Made by a program: the position numbers and the translations under genes | Notes under the pieces: generated by a model | Told to the model about the DNA's origin: nothing | Seen by the model: the letters and a program-made list of their open reading frames with translations, nothing else | Databases searched by the model: none | Shown: piece after piece, positions 3,922 to 12,836 of the stretch | How positions within the stretch are numbered: position 1 is the stretch's first letter | Layout: each line of letters begins with the position of its first letter | NCBI GenBank assembly: GCA_016839765.1 | Contig: JAEOTP010000043.1 | Span: forward strand, 119,655 to 183,654 | Length of the DNA stretch: 64,000 bases | Source of the DNA: Promethearchaeota archaeon | Lineage (GTDB): Archaea > Asgardarchaeota > Lokiarchaeia > Sigyniarchaeales > SOKP01 | Direction of reading: 5' to 3'

Positions 3922-4962
3922 TTATTCTAAAATCATCATTTTATCTTGTTTTTGATCTGTTAATAATATTCTAAAATATTCCTTATTATTCCTAAAAATG
4001 ACTTTTTCCAACTTTCCCTCAACAAGAACAGTTTCTCCTTTAATTGCATGTTCACAGAATCTTCCTCTGAAGGAATTTATCGTAATAATATCATCCAATT
4101 TAATATTTTTTGAAATGCATATATTATTGTAGGCTTTTATGCATTCTATTTTATAGGAACAAGGTGTAAAGATAGCATTGGAGTCATCAGTGATTTTTGC
4201 TTTTAATTTTATTCTTCCCATATTTTTATATGAATAATCATAGTAAGTTCCTTTCCAATCTTTAGGACTTTTTATATATCTTATAAAAAATTCAAATCTC
4301 TTATACATGCCCTGATGGAGTTTCCTTCTCTCACTTTTTAAAAAATTTTCAAATGGTATTCCTGAACCTCCTACTCTCCATCCATAATGAGTGCGGTATT
4401 CTTCTTTGGAATATTTTCTACAATATTTATCTTTTTCCAGGATAATAGCAAGCTTATTTTGGAAATCTCGGCTTATGTCTGTTCCATAAACAATCAAATC
4501 AATATCAGATTGATTTTTGCTTAATCCAACCATTTGTGAACCTGTTATACCGATTGAACCATATGGGAGTAATGAATTCTCGATAAGTAATTCACAAAGC
4601 TCTTTAGAACATTTTTCAAGATGGTTAGGATTAAATTTCTGAGATAATTCTTTATAGTATTCTCGTGGGGTATAAATTTCTTTAATATCCTCATTTTTAA
4701 CACATTGTAGCTCTAAATCGAATTGTTTAGAGAAGAATAAATAATTTGGATGATTATTTCTTAGGAAGGAGAATCTTTCTTGTAAATCGTAGATCTTTTT
4801 AAATTTCTTTCCATTTTTGATTCGATCTCCATCTAGATGAGGATAAAAACGTATAAAACAAATTTTTCGATCAGAAGGGTGATGGACCCCTTTCACATCG
4901 AAAAAAAAGTTATCATTTTTAGTTTCTATATAATCTCCTTCAATTCCTTTAGGAATTTTCAT
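3922..4962 (-). CDS. Predicted archaeal nucleotidyltransferase (Pol-beta superfamily)
   Basis: GITGS-x9-SDIDLIVYG motif; C-terminal VEGKLE OB-like segment. Confidence 0.75.
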   Translation of the reverse strand: MKIPKGIEGDYIETKNDNFFFDVKGVHHPSDRKICFIRFYPHLDGDRIKNGKKFKKIYDLQERFSFLRNNHPNYLFFSKQFDLELQCVKNEDIKEIYTPREYYKELSQKFNPNHLEKCSKELCELLIENSLLPYGSIGITGSQMVGLSKNQSDIDLIVYGTDISRDFQNKLAIILEKDKYCRKYSKEEYRTHYGWRVGGSGIPFENFLKSERRKLHQGMYKRFEFFIRYIKSPKDWKGTYYDYSYKNMGRIKLKAKITDDSNAIFTPCSYKIECIKAYNNICISKNIKLDDIITINSFRGRFCEHAIKGETVLVEGKLEKVIFRNNKEYFRILLTDQKQDKMMILE

Positions 4963-4982: not shown

Positions 4983-6086
4983 TTAATATTTTGAAGGAGT
5001 TTTAGATTTGATTTTATATTTTGGTATCTCTTGAACTTTTTTCAATTCTTTCTCAAAATCTCTTTTTTCTCTAAGGAACCTCTCTTTATCTCTTTCTAAT
5101 TTTTCTCTTTCTCTTCTAATAGCATTTTTTTCAGTGTCTATCATCGACTTTTCTTTTACTAAATGCTTATAATCATTATTTAATCTTTTTTGTTTATCTT
5201 CCAAATCACGAATCTTGCGTTCTAATGAATAATAAGTATCTTCCGCTTTAGGAACTTTCCTATTTAGCTCTTTTAATCTTGTTTCTTGTTGTTGTTTCTT
5301 TTTTTCCAAATTTCTTACATCATTTTCAATTTTATCTCTAAAGTTTTCCAAATCTTCTTTTTTTTTATCAATTTCACGAGCTTTAAGATTTAGATCTTTT
5401 TTTTTAATACGATTTTTTTCTTTTTCATCTTTTAATTTTCTTTTTTCATCATCAATCCGGTTTTTTTCATCAAAAATGTTTTTTCTTAGATCATTGATTT
5501 CTTTATTTAAATTATCCCTTTCTTTTGAAAGATGTTTGATTTCATTTCTCAACTCCATTAATTCATTTTCTAATTTTTCAATTGTTCTCTCTAATGCATT
5601 TTCTCTTCTTTCCATTCCAGGTATTTTGGTTTTAATCTCTTTAACACGAACTTCTGCTCTTGCTTTTTCTCTTTCTAAATATTTTTTCTCACTTTCTAAA
5701 GCGTCTTTTAGTCTATCTAACTTTTCTTGATATTTATCTAGGTCGGCATTTTTTTGATCTAACTCTCTTTCTTTTAAACTTAGATTATTTCTATGTTGCT
5801 TTATTCCATTTTTCATTCTTTCTAATTCACTTTTTAACTTTTCACGTTGGTTTAGAAGATTTTTGACTTCAAGTTCTTTCTCTTTTCTCTTTTTTTCAAG
5901 TTCTTTTATATTATCTTGATACCCTTCAAGTTTTTTAATAACCTTTTCCCAATCGCTTTTTTCTCTGTTTAACTTTATCCTTTCTTCCTTTATCTTTTTA
6001 AGTAGTCTTGTATCTTGAATAATTTCGATTTCTTCTTCTGGCGTTTTCTCTCGAATTTGATACTTAGGAATTGGTTTATCATTCAT
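4983..6086 (-). CDS. Long coiled-coil protein with a repeated terminal IPKY-x4-KTP motif
   Basis: K/E/R/L-rich heptads throughout; IPKYQIREKTP at N-terminus, IPKYKIKSKTP at C-terminus. Confidence 0.85.
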   Translation of the reverse strand: MNDKPIPKYQIREKTPEEEIEIIQDTRLLKKIKEERIKLNREKSDWEKVIKKLEGYQDNIKELEKKRKEKELEVKNLLNQREKLKSELERMKNGIKQHRNNLSLKERELDQKNADLDKYQEKLDRLKDALESEKKYLEREKARAEVRVKEIKTKIPGMERRENALERTIEKLENELMELRNEIKHLSKERDNLNKEINDLRKNIFDEKNRIDDEKRKLKDEKEKNRIKKKDLNLKAREIDKKKEDLENFRDKIENDVRNLEKKKQQQETRLKELNRKVPKAEDTYYSLERKIRDLEDKQKRLNNDYKHLVKEKSMIDTEKNAIRREREKLERDKERFLREKRDFEKELKKVQEIPKYKIKSKTPSKY

Positions 6087-6290
6087 GATATTTCTTTAAT
6101 TCATTTAATTTCTTAATTAAATTATATTAATATTAACTCTAAAGTGTTTGCAATTTGAAATTAGGCTCTTTTTGTATTTCTTGTAGATTCTATTTATATA
6201 TTATAACTTCCATTATTTTTATTAAGAAATTACAAAAAATAATTAAAAAACTCAATAAAATTAATAATTCGAATAATTAGGTGTTTTTTT

Positions 6291-6719
6291 ATGGAGTTTG
6301 ATGAAGAATTTGATGAAGAGTTTGATGATGAATTTGATGAAGAACTTGATGAAGAACTTGATGAAGAATTAGAAGAACCTTCTGCAAAAACTCCAGCGGA
6401 AGAGGTTAAAGCTAAAACTCCAGCGGAAGAGGTTAAAGCTAAAACTCCAGCAGTTAAAGCTTTTTCGGCAGGAAAAAAGATTTCAGTTTATTTTATGTCG
6501 ACAATAGGTCCTGGTGAAAAAAAGCAAAAATTACTCATAAACACAGGAAACAGCGTTGGGGATATAAAAGAGACTGTTGCGAATTTATTTGGTTTAGATC
6601 CTGCTGATTTTCATTTATCTTCAGGTGGAATTACCATGGATGAGAGTTCAAATGTAAGTGAATATAACGTGAATGATGGAGAAGATATACTATTAATTCC
6701 AGCAAGTACTGCTGGTTAA
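6291..6719 (+). CDS. Ubiquitin-like (beta-grasp) protein 1 with acidic repeated N-tail, C-terminus PASTAG
   Basis: Ubl pattern SVGDIKETV...FHLSSGGITMDESSNVSEYNVNDGEDILLI (compare ubiquitin TIENVKAKI...[29 protein letters not shown]); AGGTG RBS upstream. Confidence 0.85.
   Translation: MEFDEEFDEEFDDEFDEELDEELDEELEEPSAKTPAEEVKAKTPAEEVKAKTPAVKAFSAGKKISVYFMSTIGPGEKKQKLLINTGNSVGDIKETVANLFGLDPADFHLSSGGITMDESSNVSEYNVNDGEDILLIPASTAG
6297..6451 (+). repeat. Intragenic tandem repeats: degenerate 12-bp units (F/L-D-E-E), then 27-bp units AAAACTCCAGCGGAAGAGGTTAAAGCT x2.4
   Basis: 27-bp units at 6387-6413 and 6414-6440, partial at 6441-6451. Confidence 0.9.
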
Positions 6720-6736
6720 AAAAAATCATTATCCTA

Positions 6737-7546
6737 TTAGTTTTTCTTTTTTAAATTTTTTTCTTTTCTTGATGGAATCAGAGCAATTTCGTCATCATCA
6801 TCAATAGCATAATCTTTTATTTGTGAGTTTTCATGCAATAATATTCCTCCAGAGGATAAAAGAAAATCTTCTAAATTATAGTCAAATAATGTTCCAATTC
6901 TTTCTTTAACACTAAATATTAATTCTGTTGTATCAATTATAATGATTTTTGTTTTTTCACCTGGCTCAACTAATGATCTTATATAAACTCGTATCTGGTC
7001 TTCCTTTTCAATAAAATTTGTAGGAGGTGTATAAATTATCCCCTCGTCAGTCTTATCCCTGTTTTTCAACATATTTTCGATTAATATTTTTCTCTCGTGT
7101 TTATCAAAATACAACATTTCTCTGATAAACATTATTTTATCCATTTTTGATAATTCTAAAAGATTTATTTTTTCTAATTCTTCCCCACTAAACACAGAAA
7201 AAATATATTTATTAATTATTTCCATATTATCATATGATTCATTTGATTCAACATAATCTTCTATTGAAGGCATGACATCAATATAATCCTCAATAAGATC
7301 AATAGGTTTTTTTTTAATCGATTTTTGTTTTTTGACATATTTTTTCTCGCTTTTCCTCTCATCCTCACTACTCGCAGATTGAATAATTGTATAGATAGTA
7401 CTGGTGGATAGTACTGAGACACTACCGATAACTAGAAAGAGAAATAAAGGAATACTTTCTATATGGAATAAGAAAAAAGCCATATAGATAATTACAAAAA
7501 TAATATAAAGGGTTATAATACTTAAAACTCTATTTTTTTTCTTCAT
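6737..7546 (-). CDS. Membrane-anchored Ubl-domain protein (2 N-terminal TM, C-terminal Ubl without terminal Gly)
   Basis: Two hydrophobic segments; C-terminal VYIRSLVEPGEK...SVKERIGTLF...DFLLSSGGILLHENSQIKDYAIDDDDEIALIP is paralogous to the neighbouring Ubls. Confidence 0.85.
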   Translation of the reverse strand: MKKKNRVLSIITLYIIFVIIYMAFFLFHIESIPLFLFLVIGSVSVLSTSTIYTIIQSASSEDERKSEKKYVKKQKSIKKKPIDLIEDYIDVMPSIEDYVESNESYDNMEIINKYIFSVFSGEELEKINLLELSKMDKIMFIREMLYFDKHERKILIENMLKNRDKTDEGIIYTPPTNFIEKEDQIRVYIRSLVEPGEKTKIIIIDTTELIFSVKERIGTLFDYNLEDFLLSSGGILLHENSQIKDYAIDDDDEIALIPSRKEKNLKKKN

Positions 7547-7601
7547 GATTTTTTATTAAATTATTATCTAAATTTCTAATATATAATTTAAAATTTAAAT
7601 T

Positions 7602-7626
7602 CCATTGGAATGAATTTGAAGTTTTT
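7602..7626 (-). promoter_or_regulatory. 25-bp element, left arm of inverted repeat, upstream of the TM-Ubl gene
   Basis: CCATTGGAATGAATTTGAAGTTTTT is the exact reverse complement of 8467-8491; overlaps dyad ATTCCA-T-TGGAAT at 7599-7611. Confidence 0.7.
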
Positions 7627-7630
7627 ATTT

Positions 7631-8302
7631 TCATACACCTTGCATTTTTTTTCTAACTTTAGAATATTTATCTGTATCTAATTGGAATGTAATTCTTTTT
7701 TTTTCTTTTTCAATTTTTATTAATTTCAGTTTTTTTAAAACATATAAATATTTTTTAATTATATTATGATTCTTTTTTAAGTTAGTTGCTATTTCTGTAA
7801 TTTTTAATGCTTTATCTTCCTTTTTCATAAAATTAATTATTTCTTGAACAATAGCCAAATTTAAATAATAATAGAGCTCGTCAAGTTCTGGATTTGAATC
7901 GTATTTATAAATAATTCTTCGATTGTTAATTTTTTTTGATCTAACAAATCGAAATTTTTCCAAACAAGATAGATGCCATAAAGCTTGATTACTTCCGATA
8001 TTTAGAGCATTCATTATTTCATTAATATTTGACGGATTTTTCTTTATGTAATTAAAGATTTCATTCCTTACTGGATGTTCAATAATATTATTTTTCATCA
8101 ATTTTGTTCCAGGAATGATCATTCTCTTTTTAATAAGATTTTTAATGGTAATTTCAATCCTAGCTTTATTGATAAAGGGATTTGATTTTACCCTATTACT
8201 AATAAATACAACAATGTTTTGTATTGAAAAGAATGGTTTTTTTTCTAAATATTCTTTTACTAATTCAAGAATAATAGATTCGACATTATTCATAGAGTTC
8301 AT
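7631..8302 (-). CDS. Winged helix-turn-helix transcriptional regulator (tandem ArsR/MarR-like wHTH)
   Basis: RNEIFNYIKKNP-SNINEIMNALNIGSNQALWHLSCLEKFRFV and a second unit LKITEIATNLKKNHNIIKKYLYVLKKLKLI. Confidence 0.8.
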   Translation of the reverse strand: MNSMNNVESIILELVKEYLEKKPFFSIQNIVVFISNRVKSNPFINKARIEITIKNLIKKRMIIPGTKLMKNNIIEHPVRNEIFNYIKKNPSNINEIMNALNIGSNQALWHLSCLEKFRFVRSKKINNRRIIYKYDSNPELDELYYYLNLAIVQEIINFMKKEDKALKITEIATNLKKNHNIIKKYLYVLKKLKLIKIEKEKKRITFQLDTDKYSKVRKKMQGV

Positions 8303-8466
8303 AACCCTATACTTTTATAATGTTAAAATATTTGGATTTTGTAAATATATATTCTTTCTGCAACATTATTTTACACCTTATATAATTATTAGGCATTCAT
8401 TCAATTTATAATATCATTTCTTAGGCATCCAAATAAGTTTCTTTTTATTTTAAGTTAAAAAACTAA

Positions 8467-8491
8467 AAAAACTTCAAATTCATTCCAATGG
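8467..8491 (+). promoter_or_regulatory. 25-bp element, right arm of inverted repeat, upstream of the Ubl2-E1-E2-JAB-RING genes
   Basis: AAAAACTTCAAATTCATTCCAATGG, 81-105 bp before the Ubl2 ATG. Confidence 0.7.
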
Positions 8492-8571
8492 GTTTTATAA
8501 TATCGTTTTAATGCGATTTTATTAAACTTAAAAAATAAAAAATTACAAAATAAAAAAAAGTCGTGAAATAA

Positions 8572-8898
8572 ATGAGTTTTGAAGAAGATTTTGATGAGGA
8601 ATTAGAACCTGTTAAATCTAAAACACCATCTACCAAAATTCCTTCAGCAGGAAAGAAATTGACTTTATACTTTACGTCAACCATTGGACCTGGTGAAAAG
8701 AAGGAAAAATTAACGGTAAATGATGCTAATCATGTAAGTGATATTAAGGAAACATTAGGAAATTTATATGGCCTTGATCCTAATGATTTTCACTTATCAT
8801 CTGGTGGAGTTACTATGGATGAAAATAGTCAATTAAAAGATTATAATTTAAATGATGGCGACGATATTCTTTTGATTCCTGCGAGTACTGCTGGGTAA
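8572..8898 (+). CDS. Ubiquitin-like protein 2, acidic N-tail, C-terminus PASTAG
   Basis: Close paralogue of 6291..6719 (shared STIGPGEKK, DIKET, DFHLSSGG, DILLIPASTAG); directly upstream of E1. Confidence 0.88.
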   Translation: MSFEEDFDEELEPVKSKTPSTKIPSAGKKLTLYFTSTIGPGEKKEKLTVNDANHVSDIKETLGNLYGLDPNDFHLSSGGVTMDENSQLKDYNLNDGDDILLIPASTAG

Positions 8899-8977
8899 AC
8901 TTATATAATTTTCTACATAAAGTATAATATGAAGGCATTAAGTCCTTCATTTTTTTTTATTTTTATTATTATTATTA

Positions 8978-10213
8978 ATGGTGATAATATTGGATAAAGA
9001 TTCAGATTTTTTTGCAAAAGCATTGTCAGTAAAAGAGAGAGATTTGTATGATCGCCAGTTTCGTCTCGAGGGCTGGTCCCAAAAATTAGTAAAAAACTCG
9101 AGAGTGTTAATTGTTGGTGTAGGAGGTTTAGGATGTGAAATTGCTAAAAATTTAGCCATGTTAGGGTTAGGCCAATTAGATCTTGTTGATTTAGATATCA
9201 TTGAACATTCTAATTTGAATCGTCAAATTCTTTTCACAGATGCGAAGATAGGAGAACCTAAGGCAGTTGTTGCTGCTCGAAAACTAAAGGAAATTAACCC
9301 TAATATTATTGTTAAGGGATATCATACATCTCTAGAAAGATTAAATCCTGCATTATATCAAGCTGCTGAAGTTGTAATTGGGGGCCTTGATTCAATGAAT
9401 GCGCGCTTGAACTTAAATGCTCAATGCATAAGATTTAGAAAACCACTCGTAGATGCAGGAGTATCAGGTTATCATGGTCATATTTACACTATCTTTCCGT
9501 ATCAAAATGCTTGTTATGAGTGCAATCCATTACCAGTAAGTGAAAGTGATGAAATGGCAGCTTGTACAGTTGTTGGAGTCCCCAGAAAAAGGATTCATTG
9601 TGTTTTTAAAGGAGATATGGCATTTAAAGAAAAGTTTGATAGAGATCCAAATCCAAAAGATATAAATGATATTAAATTTATTCAAAAAGTTGCAAATGAA
9701 TTGGTCAATAAACATAATTTCTTACCTGAATACACTAAAGATGATATCATAAAAATCATTGATAGGCATGATCCTGGAATAATTACCATAAATGCAGTTA
9801 TTTCTGCTTTACAATCACATGAGGTAGTAAAAATTCTTCATTGGAAAAAAGGTCATAAAGGATTAGGAGAACCTATTAAAAATTATGTGATTTTTAATGC
9901 CATGACGATGAAATTATACCATATTGAAAAAACGAGAAATCCAGAATGTTCTCAATGTGGTAAATCTGTTAGAAGAGTAGCTATAAAAATGAGGTCTCAA
10001 TCGCCATGTATAAATATAATTAAGATATTAAAGAAAAACGGATTTGAATTGGAGCCTGATTTTGAACCTGTGCTAACCTTATTGGATTTCAATGATATTA
10101 AAGTAATTGATTTAGAACAGAATACTATTGAAAACGGTTTAAGAAATTACGAATTTATTACAGTTGCAGGGTTTAAGGGTGGAGAAATTTATGTAACCTT
10201 AAAATTAAAATGA
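8978..10213 (+). CDS. E1 Ubl-activating enzyme (ThiF/UBA family, Uba2/Uba3-like)
   Basis: YDRQFRL, GVGGLGCE, DLDIIEHSNLNRQ, CYEC, catalytic-Cys-like CTVVGVPRKRIHC, TINAVISA, CSQC. Confidence 0.92.
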   Translation: MVIILDKDSDFFAKALSVKERDLYDRQFRLEGWSQKLVKNSRVLIVGVGGLGCEIAKNLAMLGLGQLDLVDLDIIEHSNLNRQILFTDAKIGEPKAVVAARKLKEINPNIIVKGYHTSLERLNPALYQAAEVVIGGLDSMNARLNLNAQCIRFRKPLVDAGVSGYHGHIYTIFPYQNACYECNPLPVSESDEMAACTVVGVPRKRIHCVFKGDMAFKEKFDRDPNPKDINDIKFIQKVANELVNKHNFLPEYTKDDIIKIIDRHDPGIITINAVISALQSHEVVKILHWKKGHKGLGEPIKNYVIFNAMTMKLYHIEKTRNPECSQCGKSVRRVAIKMRSQSPCINIIKILKKNGFELEPDFEPVLTLLDFNDIKVIDLEQNTIENGLRNYEFITVAGFKGGEIYVTLKLK

Positions 10214-10319
10214 AATTGTAGTCAAAAAATATATTTTATAAAAGTTTAATGAAAAAAAACATATATAAAAGAGAAAATTTTTATTATAAAAGCAGAGTAA
10301 AACAAAAAGGGTTGAGAAA

Positions 10320-10847
10320 ATGAGTATAAGAAGTAGTCGCGTTTCCCGCGATTTTGCTGGATTAAAAAAAATGCTTAAAGTTGGTACTATAGTTCAACTA
10401 AAACCATTTAATTCTAAAAAAAAGAGCATTGATCATTTAGCTATCACAATTAAAGGCCCTAAAGGTACTGTCTTTGCTGGGGGACTTTTTAAACTAGAAA
10501 TGAGATTCCCTGCTCAGTATCCTAAGCAGCCTCCTTTTGTAAGAATGCATACTCCAATTTGGCATCCAAATTTTTGGCCAAAACCAAGTGAATACAAAGG
10601 AAAGAGAAATATTTGTCTAGCATTAATAGACCCTTCCTTAATTGGGAAAAAGGGTGGATGGAGTCCTTCAAAAACCGCTGTTACAGTAGTTCAAGCAATA
10701 ATTGCTATGTTAAATACCCGGGGTAAATATGTAAACCCAACAGATGTTTTTAATAAAAAAGCAGCAATAGAAATGATGAAAAATCCTAAATTTTTCGAGA
10801 AAAAAGTTAAAAATTTAGTGAAGAAGTACGCTAAGAACAAGTGGTGA
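10320..10847 (+). CDS. E2 Ubl-conjugating enzyme (UBC fold)
   Basis: GPKGTVFAGGLFKLEMRFPAQYPKQPP, WHPN, NICL (catalytic Cys), WSPS. Confidence 0.93.
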   Translation: MSIRSSRVSRDFAGLKKMLKVGTIVQLKPFNSKKKSIDHLAITIKGPKGTVFAGGLFKLEMRFPAQYPKQPPFVRMHTPIWHPNFWPKPSEYKGKRNICLALIDPSLIGKKGGWSPSKTAVTVVQAIIAMLNTRGKYVNPTDVFNKKAAIEMMKNPKFFEKKVKNLVKKYAKNKW

Positions 10848-10854
10848 AATCATA

Positions 10855-11661
10855 ATGAATATTGATGAGAAGAAAAACAATTTAATCAAAGAAGCAATAA
10901 AGCAAAAAATTAAAGAGAAAATTAAAAAAGAATTACTTGAAGAGATATATACCGAATTACAATTAGAAGAAGAATTAAGGGAAGAAATAACTTCTGAACT
11001 TATTGAAACCCAGCCATTAGAGCATTCAGAAACAGTTAAAGCCAAACTTGAACCCATACCAATGGAACCGGTAAAAACATATGCTAAGAATGATAAAGCT
11101 GAAGCAAAAGTAGCTCTAACAGTAAAAGCTGTCCTTAAGATCGCTAGTCATTCATTAAAATATGCTCATTCTAAAATTCGAAGAGAGGAATGGGTTGAAG
11201 TGATAGGATTACTCGCTGGAAAATTTGACAATACTAAAGGAGTCCTTCATGTGGAAGATGCCTATCCAATGGGACATGGTACAGCAGTTTATGCTGAAAT
11301 TAAAGATTATAAAAATTATGTTAGAGCTTTTAAAGACATAAAAAAGAACAGCCTTTTTATTTGTGGATGGTATCATTCCCATCCTTCTTATGGATGTTTT
11401 ATGTCTAAAGAAGATTTAGGAACTCAAGCAAGATACCAAAAATTATGGGATAAAGCAATTGCGCTAGTTATAGATCCATACCAAATTGATGGCACTTCAT
11501 TGGGTTTTGAAATCTATCGTGCGAATTTTAAAACAAATAAGTGGTTTTCAGTACCATTTGATATTAAAGGATATTTAGATGTGAGAATGTTGCCGGAAAT
11601 TTTGGAATTTATGAATCCAATCATTGAAGGTAAACCTGTTTATTTAGAATATGATGAATGA
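10855..11661 (+). CDS. JAB1/MPN+ (JAMM) metalloprotease, Rpn11/CSN5-like, with N-terminal coiled coil
   Basis: EVIGLL...GWYHSHPSYGCFMSKED...ALVIDP. Confidence 0.92.
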   Translation: MNIDEKKNNLIKEAIKQKIKEKIKKELLEEIYTELQLEEELREEITSELIETQPLEHSETVKAKLEPIPMEPVKTYAKNDKAEAKVALTVKAVLKIASHSLKYAHSKIRREEWVEVIGLLAGKFDNTKGVLHVEDAYPMGHGTAVYAEIKDYKNYVRAFKDIKKNSLFICGWYHSHPSYGCFMSKEDLGTQARYQKLWDKAIALVIDPYQIDGTSLGFEIYRANFKTNKWFSVPFDIKGYLDVRMLPEILEFMNPIIEGKPVYLEYDE

Positions 11662-11684
11662 TATTTTTTGGTGAAAATTAAACA

Positions 11685-12836
11685 ATGGTTAAAAAGAAGG
11701 GTTTAGCAATAATATTTATTGTTTTTCTAATAATTGGTATAATACATAGTTCTATCTCAATTTCCTTAAATATTTTTTTAACTTGGATATTTATTGGTTT
11801 ATGGATAATTTTTACGATTAAGATTTTTGAAAATATAAAGCAGCATCGCGAATTCAATTCACCACATAATACTGCTTTTTTTGTAATCATCCCTTTATTC
11901 ATCGGAATTTTTTACTCCATTTGGGGGTATTTTACAGGTATATTGGGTGAAAACCTTCTTGAAGGCTCAAATATATATTTTAGTTGGTGGAGTCTCATTT
12001 TTGGATTTCCATTTATAATATATGGTTCTTATTCTTTATATCGTTGTTTTAAGAAATATAATGTAATCTATTTTGGAACCAAGTCAGTAAAAGCTAGGAC
12101 ATTAGGATATATTTTAACTTCCACAGTTATTCTTTTTATAATAATTTATTGGGTAATGTTTTATAGTGTTATAGAATTTTATGATTCTCTATTAACCCCT
12201 CTTCATTTTTCTTTAAATCTAAATCTTCTATTATTATTCATTGCATCATTATTGATCTTTATTATTTTTGGATTAGCTAGTTCACATAGAACACTTCCAA
12301 CATTAACTCGGGATTACATTGCTCAACGTACTAGAAGAATAAATTCATTAAGTACTCCTACAATTCAAAGGCAAAGGGTACGTACAACAACTAGAACTAC
12401 TCCATCACCTTCAAGAAGAACTGTGACTCAAACAACGAGGTCTAGATCTCATTCATCGAGAACAACACCTACTTCCCAAAGGCAAAAAACTAGAACAACA
12501 AAAACTACTAGAACTAGAGCCGTAAAAACAACTTCAAAAGCTATAAATTTAGATAAATATAAACCAAGAGCATCATATCTGTCAGAAGATGATTTTAAAT
12601 GTATTTTTTGTTTTAAGCTGCCAAAACTACCCGATGATAATGGCAGAGGGATAATTGTATGTCCAAATTGTAGATATCCGGCTCATGCTGATGAATTTAA
12701 AGATTGGCTAAGAACCTCAAATCTCTGTTCAAGATGTAGTACTCCCATTCCATCCAGATTTAAACATAATCCTAGAATAATTAGTATAAAAAATTATCAA
12801 ATAGTCTATAGGCATTTTTTAAAGAAGAAAAGATAA
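11685..12836 (+). CDS. Multi-pass membrane protein with C-terminal RING-variant zinc finger (putative E3 ligase)
   Basis: About 6 hydrophobic segments, R/T/S-rich linker, C-x2-C-x16-C-x2-C-x4-H-x2-E-x3-W-x6-C-x2-C; last gene of the E1/E2/JAB run. Confidence 0.72.
   Translation: MVKKKGLAIIFIVFLIIGIIHSSISISLNIFLTWIFIGLWIIFTIKIFENIKQHREFNSPHNTAFFVIIPLFIGIFYSIWGYFTGILGENLLEGSNIYFSWWSLIFGFPFIIYGSYSLYRCFKKYNVIYFGTKSVKARTLGYILTSTVILFIIIYWVMFYSVIEFYDSLLTPLHFSLNLNLLLLFIASLLIFIIFGLASSHRTLPTLTRDYIAQRTRRINSLSTPTIQRQRVRTTTRTTPSPSRRTVTQTTRSRSHSSRTTPTSQRQKTRTTKTTRTRAVKTTSKAINLDKYKPRASYLSEDDFKCIFCFKLPKLPDDNGRGIIVCPNCRYPAHADEFKDWLRTSNLCSRCSTPIPSRFKHNPRIISIKNYQIVYRHFLKKKR

Follow-up and report, generated by a model that had tools for sequence, protein, structure and literature searches.

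The question raised by this locus is whether an Asgard archaeon encodes a ubiquitin-like conjugation pathway separate from those already described. The eukaryote-like operons of Caldiarchaeum subterraneum and Asgard archaea comprise ubiquitin, an E1-like and an E2-like protein, a small RING finger protein and Rpn11 (Hennell James 2017, PMC5654768; Fuchs 2018, PMC6043591), a ubiquitin cascade is described for Helarchaea (bioRxiv 10.1101/2023.07.25.550441), and the published Lokiarchaeal "Ub" is of the Gly-Gly (GG) type. We analyzed a 64,000-nucleotide stretch of a Promethearchaeota archaeon (the window), in which the modifier ends in Ala-Gly (A-G), and named the set of genes described below the AG-type Ubl system.

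Gene content of the locus

Open reading frames of the window were assigned to families with Pfam and NCBIfam profiles. The nine genes that a first-pass annotation had placed within ~8 kb were all recovered (9 of 9 ORFs), and we list them here together with two features contained in them:

4983..6086, minus strand: coiled-coil partner protein, 367 aa, pI 9.6; Pfam and NCBIfam recognize nothing but coiled coil
6291..6719, plus strand: Ubl1, 142 aa; weaker PF00240 match, 2.9e-5
6297..6451, plus strand: tandem DNA repeats building the Ubl1 tail; Tandem Repeats Finder
6737..7546, minus strand: membrane-anchored Ubl paralogue (TM-Ubl), 269 aa; C-terminal PF00240 match, 2.9e-4
7631..8302, minus strand: tandem ArsR/SmtB-type winged-helix (wHTH) protein, 223 aa; HTH_5 1.4e-7, second wHTH at residues 150-210
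8572..8898, plus strand: Ubl2, the operon modifier, 108 aa; PF00240 at 28.2 bits (cut-off 25.4)
8978..10213, plus strand: E1 activating enzyme, 411 aa; ThiF 4e-60
10320..10847, plus strand: E2 conjugating enzyme, 175 aa, pI 10.6; UQ_con 1e-25
10855..11661, plus strand: Rpn11-like JAMM/MPN+ metalloprotease, 268 aa, with a charged N-terminal extension; PF01398 1.7e-15
11685..12836, plus strand: polytopic membrane RING protein, the E3 candidate, 383 aa; AF2 full-length model and hydropathy
12594..12833, plus strand: RING-H2-like domain of the E3 candidate, residues ~304-383; alignment, profile and AF2 fold

As first read, the genes for Ubl2, E1, E2, the JAMM protease and the RING protein with six transmembrane (TM) helices form a co-directional run on the plus strand, separated by gaps of only 79, 106, 7 and 23 bp. 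Together with the divergent coiled-coil partner, they make up the core of the locus. A synteny survey across Asgard genomes found the same gene order in every sampled family possessing the E3, and the arrangement is far beyond chance. The operon is flanked by housekeeping genes of cofactor and amino-acid metabolism.

The description of the system as "complete" holds for this core of Ubl, E1, E2, JAMM protease and RING protein. Ubl1, TM-Ubl and the wHTH protein are a lineage-specific regulatory add-on outside the ancient core: TM-Ubl is present in 90 of the 151 genomes of the order but in only 4 of its 24 genera. It carries two N-terminal TM helices (hydrophobic stretch at residues 4-55 by hydropathy), and its Ubl domain is 38% identical to Ubl2 over 87 residues. 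This domain terminates in ...IPSRKEKNLKKKN and, lacking the A-G end, is probably not conjugatable. The tandem winged-helix protein, whose gene is syntenic in genome G095, is a probable local transcription regulator.

The modifier and its enzymes

In Ubl2, an acidic F-D-E-E-L tail and an S-K-T-P motif precede a ubiquitin-family beta-grasp domain. Ubl1, which is 70% identical to it across the core and aligns with the rest of the family, combines the same kind of domain with an expanded acidic tail containing three K-T-P motifs. This tail is encoded by two repeat arrays, a 12-bp unit in 6.2 copies (6297-6370; F-D-E-E repeats) and a perfect 27-bp unit in 2.4 copies (6387-6451; K-T-P-A-E-E-V-K-A repeats). 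The assignment of the Ubls to the ubiquitin family is borne out by PF00240, which matches 20 of 20 family members, and by a profile search of the PDB with ubiquitin, Caldiarchaeum Ub and ISG15 as best matches. The Rad60-SLD model matches 15 of the 20, more weakly than ubiquitin, and ThiS matches a single member (E 0.17). Identity with Ufm1 is not supported, as PF03671 matches none of the 20.

Both free Ubls end in ...LLIPASTAG, in agreement with the single-Gly terminus first proposed, and the Ubl2 gene encodes the mature form. Almost every locus orthologue has the IP-x-S-x-A-G terminus, as do 31 of 33 representative Ubl clusters; the A-G end itself is invariant, with no GG intermediates among the 33 clusters. 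In many orthologues, a short pro-peptide (1-7 residues) is present, and tandem precursors of two (P0399) and three units (P0398) exist. These precursor forms point to the terminal Gly as the predicted site of processing and conjugation.

The catalytic motifs of all three enzymes are intact, as had been noted from the sequence of the locus, and invariant in 18 deep orthologues. In the E1, they comprise G47-x-G-G-x-G52, C196 within A-C-T...P-R...H-C, and the Zn-binding Cys pairs 179/182 and 324/327. Its adenylation domain is accompanied by the insert bearing the catalytic C196 and by a Zn site, and its last ~80 residues would form a ubiquitin-fold domain; no rhodanese domain was found in it. Its best PDB profile matches are UBA1, SAE2 and UBA3, which fit equally well at ~1e-38, followed by MoeB (1e-31) and UBA5 (1e-16), and it also matches the MoeB, ThiF and SAMP-E1 models. 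The operon contains one E1 gene, and no heterodimer is encoded.

In the E2, the invariant residues are H82-P83-N84 and C99, and 53 positions do not vary across 14 deep orthologues. A conserved insertion of seven residues extends the stretch between HPN and C99 to 14 residues instead of the usual seven. The PDB matches of the E2 are canonical UBC enzymes, with Ubc9 one among many. The JAMM motif (E115, H174-x-H176, S184 and D187) belongs to a protein whose best PDB match is Caldiarchaeum Rpn11 (6fjv, 7e-17), followed by Rpn11 and CSN5; this protease is the probable precursor-processing and deconjugating enzyme. In public annotation, the Ubl, E1 and E2 carry only generic names.

The membrane RING protein and the coiled-coil partner

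The E3 candidate consists of six TM helices (residues ~2-197), identified by hydropathy and the AF2 model, a disordered linker rich in R, T and S (224-290) and the C-terminal RING domain. Hydropathy and the positive-inside charge distribution place both termini in the cytoplasm. No Pfam model matches the whole protein, and its 375 homologues are all annotated as "hypothetical" and all lack a Pfam domain; the full-length family is present in 129 of 301 sampled Asgard genomes.

For the C-terminal domain, the alignment predicts an invariant C-C-C-C-H-E-C-C ligand set (C306, C309, C326, C329, H334, E337, C348 and C351) together with W341, in which E337 is a predicted zinc ligand. Profile matches in the PDB are headed by RNF24 (2e-5) and RNF4 (1e-4), followed by EL5, RNF38, Arkadia and HRD1, and among 17 members zf-RING_2 matches 14 and Prok-RING_1 all. 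The AF2 model of the domain (pLDDT 88.5) retrieves only RING or U-box structures among its top 50 Foldseek matches to the PDB, mostly with probabilities of 0.8-1.0 and TM scores of about 0.5; the E-values are modest (best 5.7e-3) because the domain is small. Profile and predicted fold both confirm the domain as RING/U-box. The initial reading as a membrane RING protein stands, with the RING placed in the cytoplasm, and this protein is the probable ligase of the AG-type system.

The further label "ERAD-like" applies to the architecture alone. Like Hrd1/synoviolin, Doa10/MARCH6, MARCH and RNF ligases, the candidate crosses the membrane several times and exposes to the cytoplasm a RING to which an E2 would be recruited, and the RING-H2 domains of HRD1, RNF24 and EL5 are among its profile and fold matches. 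In contrast to these ligases, its RING lies at the C-terminus behind a basic linker that is long and disordered, the predicted ligand 6 is a Glu, and for the TM domain no similarity was found to the folds of Hrd1, Derlin, Doa10 or any other solved protein. The locus also contains no Derlin, Cdc48-recruiting or ERAD partner. Since the TM domain has no recognized fold, it is the topology alone that suggests a membrane-linked function.

The coiled-coil partner carries one [EK/ST]-K-T-P motif at each end (residues 14 and 362), and no other protein of this genome has [SKT]KTP within its last 15 residues. A divergent Ubl neighbor with terminal K-T-P or K-x-P repeats is also found at Loki, Sigyn, Borr-labelled, f6, Heimdallarchaeaceae and Hod loci. 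Because the rare [ST]-K-T-P motif is common to the Ubl tails and both ends of the partner, we suggest that it may be an acceptor or docking site, with the coiled-coil protein as candidate substrate or scaffold; alternatively, the motif could be a kinase site or docking motif.

This arrangement recalls SUMO: a flexible N-terminal tail of the modifier bears a short lysine motif that recurs in a candidate substrate, in concept comparable to the psi-K-x-E consensus that Ubc9 reads directly. Further likenesses, in line with the "SUMO-like parts" of the first-pass annotation, are the pairing of a basic E2 with an acidic modifier and the weaker Rad60-SLD matches. However, the Ubl scores better as ubiquitin, the E1 is a single gene fitting UBA1, SAE2 and UBA3 alike, the modifier ends in A-G rather than G-G, and the E2 is not specifically Ubc9-like, so that the likeness is a weak one. 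SUMO uses Ulp/SENP proteases and an SP-RING, whereas this locus encodes a JAMM protease and a RING-H2-like E3.

Distribution and relation to known pathways

The Ubl is present in 129 of 151 genomes of the Lokiarchaeales, including the cultured Lokiarchaeum ossiferum, with 80-97% identity within the family, and the core operon is kept in four families of the order. It also occurs in Sigynarchaeota, a Borrarchaeum-labelled lineage, Heimdallarchaeaceae, Hodarchaeales and other Asgard families. Outside Asgard the system was not found, the E2 signature being confined to Asgard among 185,579 species. With the queries used, it was also not found in f11 (0 of 76), an Odin-sized genome and another genome of the order, 4.4 Mb on a single contig, and thus it is not essential to all Asgard. 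In this sampling, the AG-type system is restricted to Asgard archaea; it is vertically inherited, highly conserved and near-universal in the order.

We weighed four other explanations. The first, which we regard as unlikely, assumes a single pathway, the described Asgard/Caldiarchaeum ubiquitin system with paralogous parts, of which A-G would be a trivial variant. Both sets indeed share operon organization and a ubiquitin-family modifier, partly made as pro-forms. In both, the E1 is a single chain with a catalytic Cys, the E2 has the UBC fold together with HPN and Cys, the E3 is of the RING type, and the JAMM protease is Rpn11-like, CsRpn11 being the nearest solved relative of the protease encoded here. 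In addition, Caldiarchaeum Ub is among the PDB matches of the Ubl, an orthologue of the operon E2 already appears in a published E2/UEV alignment, and the public names of Ubl, E1 and E2 are generic. But the same genome contains, on contig C33, a separate cluster of a GG-ending Ubl (no Pfam match) with its own JAB, E1 and E2, as well as a third E1/E2 pair on contig C23. Moreover, the operon E2s, carrying the insertion before the catalytic Cys, form their own clade with support of 100/98, set off by a long stem and covering at least eight Asgard families. The modifier ends in invariant A-G instead of Gly-Gly and has a conserved acidic and S-K-T-P N-terminal tail. Instead of a small soluble RING protein, a conserved 6-TM protein bears the RING at its C-terminal end, with C4-H-E-C2 as the ligand set, and the core includes a co-inherited coiled-coil protein in which the K-T-P motif recurs. 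These differences uphold the original proposal of a pathway distinct from the GG operons, and the AG-type system has apparently not been described as such before; the published accounts examined treat only GG ubiquitins.

A forerunner of the UFM1 pathway, acting at the membrane as UFMylation does at the ER, is highly improbable. The L-I-P-A-S-T-A-G terminus resembles that of mature UFM1, where I-I-P-x4-G likewise leaves only one terminal Gly; in both, this Gly is exposed on processing and the E3 context is membrane-associated. Structure-based homologues of Ufm1 are reported from nine Asgard clades in a 2026 paper, and these may or may not include the AG-type Ubl. Yet PF03671 matches nothing in the genome at E <= 1, UFM1 is absent from the top 60 PDB profile matches of the Ubl, where ubiquitin is present, the E1 matches UBA5 far less well than UBA1, SAE2 and UBA3, and the E2 shares its HPN motif with canonical UBCs. 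UFSP and UFL1 serve the UFM1 pathway together with UBA5 and UFC1, whereas all enzymes here are of the ubiquitin type.

Hardly credible is an antiviral system tagging phage or virus proteins, like bacterial Bil, which had been offered as an alternative, or like Bub or CBASS-Cap2. The four-part core of Ubl, E1, E2 and JAB is common to both, the protein to be conjugated ends in a single Gly in both, and fusions of the Ubl with other proteins bring to mind the attachment of entire proteins in Cap2-type systems. The matches to defence models are weak (PADLOC: E1 to CBASS "E1-E2" 6e-18, JAB 7e-5; NCBIfam: 6A-MBL cap2_3) and, for E2 and Ubl, absent from PADLOC. The locus also has a RING E3, E1 and E2 are much nearer to eukaryotic enzymes, and its flanks and its syntenic, vertical inheritance fit a housekeeping system better than a patchy defence island; in the E2 tree, internal branches are short and rapid turnover is not apparent.

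That the Ubl stays unconjugated and serves, like ThiS, MoaD, Urm1 or SAMP, as sulfur carrier or adaptor, with E2, RING and JAB otherwise employed, has a probability close to negligible. In its favor, the E1 is a member of the ThiF/MoeB superfamily that matches the MoeB, ThiF and SAMP-E1 models. But this E1 contains the insert with the catalytic Cys known from canonical E1s, lacks a rhodanese domain and is strictly inherited together with an intact E2, RING and isopeptidase. The Ubl is of the ubiquitin family and barely matches ThiS, and tandem precursors favor a ubiquitin-like life cycle.

For the AG-type system, we propose the following course. The Ubl would be made mature, as here, with a short pro-peptide, or as a tandem precursor of two to three units, which the operon's JAMM protease would cut after the invariant Ala-Gly. 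E1 would adenylate the terminal Gly, take up the Ubl on Cys196 as a thioester and hand it to Cys99 of the E2, which is dedicated to this system and very basic. The cytoplasmic RING-H2-like domain of the six-helix protein may then dock E2~Ubl and so promote the modification of lysines in proteins on the cytoplasmic side of the cell membrane, and the same protease could reverse the modification. The [ST]-K-T-P motif in the Ubl's own tail would permit chains, and its presence at both ends of the coiled-coil protein would make the latter a substrate or scaffold. We infer the thioester cascade, protease specificity, membrane-proximal targets, K-T-P role and biological purpose.

Phylogeny and co-existence in one genome suggest that this system would work orthogonally to the GG-type set. 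We consider it likely that the AG-type system is a second conjugation pathway of the ubiquitin family, found only in Asgard archaea and running in the same cell as the Gly-Gly set.

The AG-type locus and its enzymes

The source metagenome-assembled genome (MAG) belongs to the Lokiarchaeia (Promethearchaeota), comprises 3.3 Mb at ~29% GC, and is 96% complete. All nine open reading frames of the non-canonical ubiquitin-like (Ubl) conjugation system proposed by the first-pass annotation were found at the following positions:

4983-6086, minus strand: coiled-coil protein; a coiled coil is all that Pfam and NCBIfam recognize
6291-6719, plus strand: Ubl1
6737-7546, minus strand: TM-Ubl, with two transmembrane helices
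7631-8302, minus strand: tandem ArsR-type winged helix-turn-helix (wHTH) protein (Pfam, NCBIfam)
8572-8898, plus strand: Ubl2
8978-10213, plus strand: E1, ThiF/E1 family (4e-60, Pfam/NCBIfam)
10320-10847, plus strand: E2, UQ_con/E2 family (1e-25)
10855-11661, plus strand: JAMM protease, JAB/MPN family (1.7e-15)
11685-12836, plus strand: putative E3 of 383 amino acids

The five co-directional core genes (Ubl2 to E3) are separated by gaps of 79, 106, 7, and 23 bp and flanked by metabolic genes, which encode a FolE2-type GTP cyclohydrolase, an amidohydrolase, a RibD_C protein, two radical-SAM CofH-like proteins, glutamate dehydrogenase, and a TPR protein. Public records annotate the parts of the system generically, and neither Rfam families nor tRNA genes were found in the window. 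The coiled-coil gene adjoins a gene (3922-4962, minus strand) for a 346-amino-acid protein with weak matches to nucleotidyltransferase folds. In G095, the complete genome of a sister-genus member, the two genes are neighbors as well; in more distant loci, this protein was not found.

Among solved structures, the E1 is nearest to the active adenylation halves of UBA1, SAE2, and UBA3 (~1e-38), followed by MoeB (1e-31) and UBA5 (1e-16). The E2 matches canonical UBC enzymes in the PDB, including Ubc15, UBE2T, UBE2R, and Ubc9, the last of which is not the best match. For the protease, Rpn11 of Caldiarchaeum (CsRpn11, 7e-17) comes first, then Rpn11 and CSN5. The first-pass annotation had described the catalytic motifs of these three enzymes as intact, and a comparison of 18 orthologues across deep Asgard lineages bears this out, every catalytic residue being invariant. 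In the E1, this applies to the nucleotide loop G-x-G-G-x-G, R82, D138, two pairs of zinc-site cysteines, and the catalytic C196 within an A-C-T...P-R...H-C motif; in the E2, to H82-P83-N84 and C99; and in the JAMM protease, to E115, H174, H176, S184, and D187. Two features of the E2 are unusual: the protein is very basic (pI 10.6), and a conserved insertion of seven residues lies between HPN and the catalytic cysteine.

The system resembles the ubiquitin operons of Caldiarchaeum and Asgard archaea in combining a ubiquitin-family β-grasp modifier, an E1 with adenylation domain and catalytic cysteine, an E2 with HPN and cysteine, and an operon-linked Rpn11-like JAMM protease. It differs from them in the modifier and the E3: their modifier has Gly-Gly at its end, either as encoded or after processing, whereas the AG-type modifier ends in Ala-Gly, and their E3 is a small soluble RING protein, whereas the AG-type RING sits in a protein with six transmembrane (TM) helices. 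An ATP-dependent thioester cascade and isopeptides have been demonstrated for the Gly-Gly (GG) systems of Caldiarchaeum and Helarchaeia only (PMC5654768; PMC6043591; bioRxiv 10.1101/2023.07.25.550441). A thioester cascade from the AG-type E1 to its E2 is predicted from sequence.

The modifier, its K-T-P motif, and the coiled-coil partner

Ubl2 matches the ubiquitin family PF00240 above the Pfam gathering cut-off, and Ubl1 and the C-terminus of TM-Ubl match the same family more weakly. Across 20 members of the Ubl family, PF00240 matches all and Rad60-SLD matches 15. The best PDB profile matches are ubiquitin, the Caldiarchaeum ubiquitin CsUb, ISG15, and ubiquilin, and a feature search of the ESM Atlas gave ubiquitin-family clusters as the only neighbors. 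By these sequence criteria, the Ubl domain is assigned to the ubiquitin family. The AG-type Ubl family comprises 831 clusters at 90% identity; in the order, 129 of the 151 genomes sampled encode members, at 80–97% identity, and genomes of the window's genus and of the sister genus usually have three to five copies.

Orthologues were fetched from Lokiarchaeales, Sigynarchaeota, a lineage labelled Borrarchaeum, Heimdallarchaeaceae, Hodarchaeales, and others. All of them have A-G at the end of the domain, and nearly all have the longer motif I-P-x-S-[TR]-A-G there. The A-G end was also present in each of 33 family clusters examined from an exhaustive profile search of 1.84 billion representatives, and no variant ending in G-G was found among the fetched orthologues or these 33 representative clusters. 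The Ubls had been thought to be encoded already mature, which holds within the window but not across the family, many members of which carry 1–7 residues beyond the glycine. The profile search also yielded two head-to-tail precursors, P0399 (250 amino acids) with two and P0398 (372 amino acids) with three complete AG-type units, each consisting of an acidic tail, S-K-T-P, the β-grasp domain, and I-P-x-S-x-A-G. Ubiquitin shows the same forms, namely pro-forms and poly-precursors (polyubiquitin) that are cut after the terminal glycine. Since both pro-forms and tandem precursors occur, the terminal glycine of the AG-type Ubl would be the site of processing as well as conjugation. By analogy with CsRpn11, the JAMM protein of the operon would be the obvious protease for these precursors.

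The N-terminal tails of the Ubls begin with an acidic F-D-E-E-L segment, followed by at least one [ST]-K-T-P motif; K17, P19, and P24 of the tail are at least 90% conserved. With a pI of 4.1–4.4, the Ubls are acidic, in contrast to the basic E2. The tail of Ubl1 contains perfect tandem repeats of 12 and 27 bp, and judging from these repeats its expansion is recent.

The K-T-P motif recurs in the divergently encoded coiled-coil neighbor, at both the N- and the C-terminal end and often repeated. This two-ended arrangement is found in the families of the Loki order, the Borrarchaeum-labelled lineage, and a further family of the same class (f6). Sigynarchaeota have an orthologue whose C-terminal copy is degenerate, and loci of Heimdallarchaeaceae and Hodarchaeales contain a neighboring protein with terminal K-x-P repeats. 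In the window's genome, [SKT]-K-T-P occurs 32 times in 985,000 residues of open reading frames, and only the coiled-coil partner carries it within its last 15 residues. We infer that K-T-P may serve as an acceptor-lysine or docking signal common to the modifier, where it would allow chains, and to a dedicated substrate or scaffold.

Ubl domains are also fused to other proteins, both within loci of this type (L031:14072-15814, minus strand; L042:911-2719, plus strand; L029:9691-11448, minus strand) and in the representatives P0458, P0499, and P0525. A Ubl with K-T-P and A-G forms the C-terminus of a HerA/DUF87-type ATPase in the Borrarchaeum-labelled lineage and of a Cdc48N-like protein with a vWA domain in Sigynarchaeota and others. 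In further fusions of ~270–340 amino acids, no known domain is recognizable at the N-terminus.

TM-Ubl has no A-G end, is found in only 4 of the 24 genera of the order, and in G095 travels with Ubl1 and the wHTH gene as a separate module. It is a lineage-specific addition and plausibly regulatory. The view of the nine genes as one complete system is borne out for the conserved core but does not extend to Ubl1, TM-Ubl, and the wHTH gene. In G095, the locus is split (L025, C1:662000-678000; L024, C1:558000-576000). Its accessory module consists of the nucleotidyltransferase-like gene, the coiled-coil gene, Ubl1, TM-Ubl, the wHTH gene, and Ubl2, followed by a 136-amino-acid N-terminal fragment of E1; the full Ubl-E1-E2-JAMM-RING operon lies 100 kb from this module, and another solitary Ubl gene is located elsewhere.

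The membrane-integral RING protein

The putative E3 has 375 homologues, all of them annotated as hypothetical and none with a Pfam domain. They form a family of conserved 6-TM proteins of ~370–400 amino acids. According to the AlphaFold2 model and the hydropathy profile, six TM helices are followed by a disordered linker rich in R, T, and S (residues 224–290) and a folded C-terminal domain. Judging from the distribution of charges, both termini are probably cytoplasmic, which would place the C-terminal domain in the cytoplasm. The linker is of extremely low complexity: its 67 residues include 13 R, 22 T, and 8 S. Between lineages it differs in length and sequence but is basic in every case.

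Nine residues of the C-terminal domain, C306, C309, C326, C329, H334, E337, C348, C351, and W341, are invariant in lineages down to 20% overall identity. Their spacing matches that of RING-H2 domains, with Cys as ligand 4 and Glu as ligand 6, that is, seven standard ligands plus Glu, and W341 is also spaced as in RING-H2. The PDB matches of the RING-domain profile include RNF24 (2e-5), RNF4 (1e-4), EL5, RNF38, Arkadia, and HRD1, and among 17 members, zf-RING_2 matches 14 and Prok-RING_1 all. The isolated domain was modeled with a pLDDT of 88.5, and the top 50 Foldseek matches of this model are all RING or U-box E3 domains (probability mostly 0.8–1.0, TM-score ~0.5). Profiles and model agree in assigning a RING/U-box fold to the domain, for which a role as ligase is predicted.

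The TM domain contains conserved polar residues. No solved structure matched its fold in Foldseek, and a wide VIA-align search with the full-length model returned only generic helical bundles (Z ≤ 8.5). Genes for retrotranslocation partners of ERAD ligases such as Hrd1 and Doa10 were not found at the locus. As a description of the protein, "ERAD-like E3" goes no further than an architectural analogy.

Distribution and relation to other modifier systems

The gene order Ubl, E1, E2, JAMM, TM-RING is kept in four families of the window's order and in all sampled distant Asgard families that have the E3; in Heimdallarchaeaceae, the operon is split (L034, L035, L041), with Ubl-E1 and E2-JAMM-RING separated by ~1.5 kb. 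Between these two halves, a small, very basic protein with K-x-P-K-Q repeats at both ends is encoded. Of 301 sampled Asgard genomes, 129 yielded a full-length E3. None was found in the 76 genomes of one large Asgard family or in an Odin-sized genome of 1.4 Mb; in one 98%-complete genome of the large family, the operon-E2 profile detected no E2. G011, a single contig of 4.4 Mb from the same order, and G001 gave no Ubl match and an E3 match at RING level only (3.9e-6); the system seems to be missing from their genus but is present in other members of the family.

Exact look-up identified Lokiarchaeum ossiferum B-35 (E2 orthologue NEF87_002994), Sigynarchaeota, Borrarchaeum, Heimdallarchaeaceae, and Hodarchaeales as carriers. 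When two E2 signature peptides were scanned over 185,579 species, 185 loci were obtained and 80 kept, all from Asgard MAGs except for one mis-binned contig. This contig (L075, DATKTW010000176.1), labelled "Candidatus Nanopelagicaceae bacterium", encodes an E2 90% identical to the operon E2; its true origin is almost certainly Asgard, and its place in a bacterial MAG a binning error. Near-identical proteins carry the NCBI labels Odin, Thor, Hermod, Hod, Deferrimicrobium, and Methanobacteriota, which are unreliable as well.

The strongest rival to a distinct pathway is that the operon is merely "the" Asgard ubiquitin system. Against this, the window's genome also harbors a GG-type set, a compact JAB-E1-E2 cluster with an E1 of 291 amino acids (contig C33:160627-163860, L003). 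The convergent 87-amino-acid Ubl of this cluster ends in V-I-G-G followed by Y-S-Y and has no Pfam match. A small zinc-ribbon protein is encoded nearby. A third pair (contig C23:9999-14028, L002) consists of a 169-amino-acid E2 and a 524-amino-acid E1 with a large insertion, separated by ~2 kb and not organized as an operon. A maximum likelihood tree was built from 28 Asgard proteins of the E2 family, and in it all 15 E2s of the operon type group together (100/98) on a long stem, with short branches inside the clade. The C23 type is sister to this clade; the ~150-amino-acid E2s, the C33 type, whose branch is very long, and the UEV-like long forms lie apart from it. Because the tree is unrooted and contains no eukaryotic sequences, it shows distinctness rather than ancestry. 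Together with the invariant A-G end and the membrane-bound E3, these observations argue for the distinct modifier pathway that the first-pass annotation had suspected. The "Ub" of Lokiarchaea in published ESCRT work is of the GG type with a pro-peptide; the E2/UEV alignment of that paper includes, without comment, a near-identical orthologue of the operon E2. For Asgard archaea and Aigarchaeota, the literature searched deals only with ubiquitins of the GG type and with E3s that are either small soluble RINGs or of the UFL1 type. No account of a membrane RING ligase or of an Asgard Ubl ending in A-G was found in the literature searchable in full text, and an earlier mention elsewhere is possible.

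The SUMO-like parts noted initially are reflected in the occurrence of Ubc9 among the E2 matches and in the Rad60-SLD matches, but the likeness does not extend to the single E1 gene, the A-G end, and the RING-H2-like E3. The defining features of the SUMO pathway, a heterodimeric E1, a Ubc9-type E2, a GG end, and an SP-RING E3, are all lacking. Nor is a Bil/CBASS-type antiviral system, offered initially as an alternative, supported: PADLOC gave weak matches for the E1 (6e-18) and JAB (7e-5) and none for Ubl or E3, and the vertical, near-universal conservation of the system in the order and the housekeeping flanks argue against it.

The UFM1 pathway consists of a Ufm1-family modifier, a UBA5-type E1, and a UFC1-type E2 without HPN. 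A Ufm1 reading of the operon, based on the single glycine and the I-P-x4-G spacing common to UFM1, is not supported. PF03671 matches nothing in the whole genome or in 20 Ubl family members, the Ubl profile finds no support for it in the PDB, and the E1 matches UBA5 far more weakly (1e-16) than UBA1, SAE2, and UBA3 (1e-38). The HPN of the E2 is invariant, and the operon encodes no UBA5/UFC1-type enzymes. Structure-based Ufm1 homologues have been reported from nine Asgard clades (2026, PMC12962969), which may or may not be the AG-type Ubl family. SAMP/UbaA sampylation employs an E1 but neither E2 nor E3, unlike the AG-type system with its co-inherited E2 and RING E3. A role as sulfur carrier is contradicted by the canonical cysteine insert of the E1 and by co-inheritance of E2, RING, and isopeptidase.

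Taken as a whole, the AG-type system could be imagined, though we think this improbable, as an ancient Asgard membrane-tagging machine that reads [ST]-K-T-P. At the inner membrane face, its membrane RING would join Ubls covalently into chains and link coiled-coil proteins through Ubl into assemblies, following a SUMO-style, motif-directed logic that would predate eukaryotes; it would possibly be ancestral to a eukaryotic membrane RING-H2 ligase or E2 branch, and the HerA-type ATPase and Cdc48N-vWA fusions would be whole enzymes conjugated to targets.

The AG-type pathway has its own E1, E2, protease, and membrane-integral RING, is as complete as the described Gly-Gly system and more strongly conserved, and occurs in Hodarchaeales and Heimdallarchaeaceae besides Lokiarchaeia. 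Its presence in the cultured Lokiarchaeum ossiferum makes the idea directly testable, and the invariant Ala-Gly end, the tandem precursors, and the common K-T-P motif provide handles for biochemistry and proteomics. Eukaryotes are characterized by ubiquitin signaling, whose roots have been followed back to Asgard archaea by way of a single described Gly-Gly system. If true, a second pathway would mean that modifier diversification and membrane-bound RING ligases are older than eukaryogenesis.
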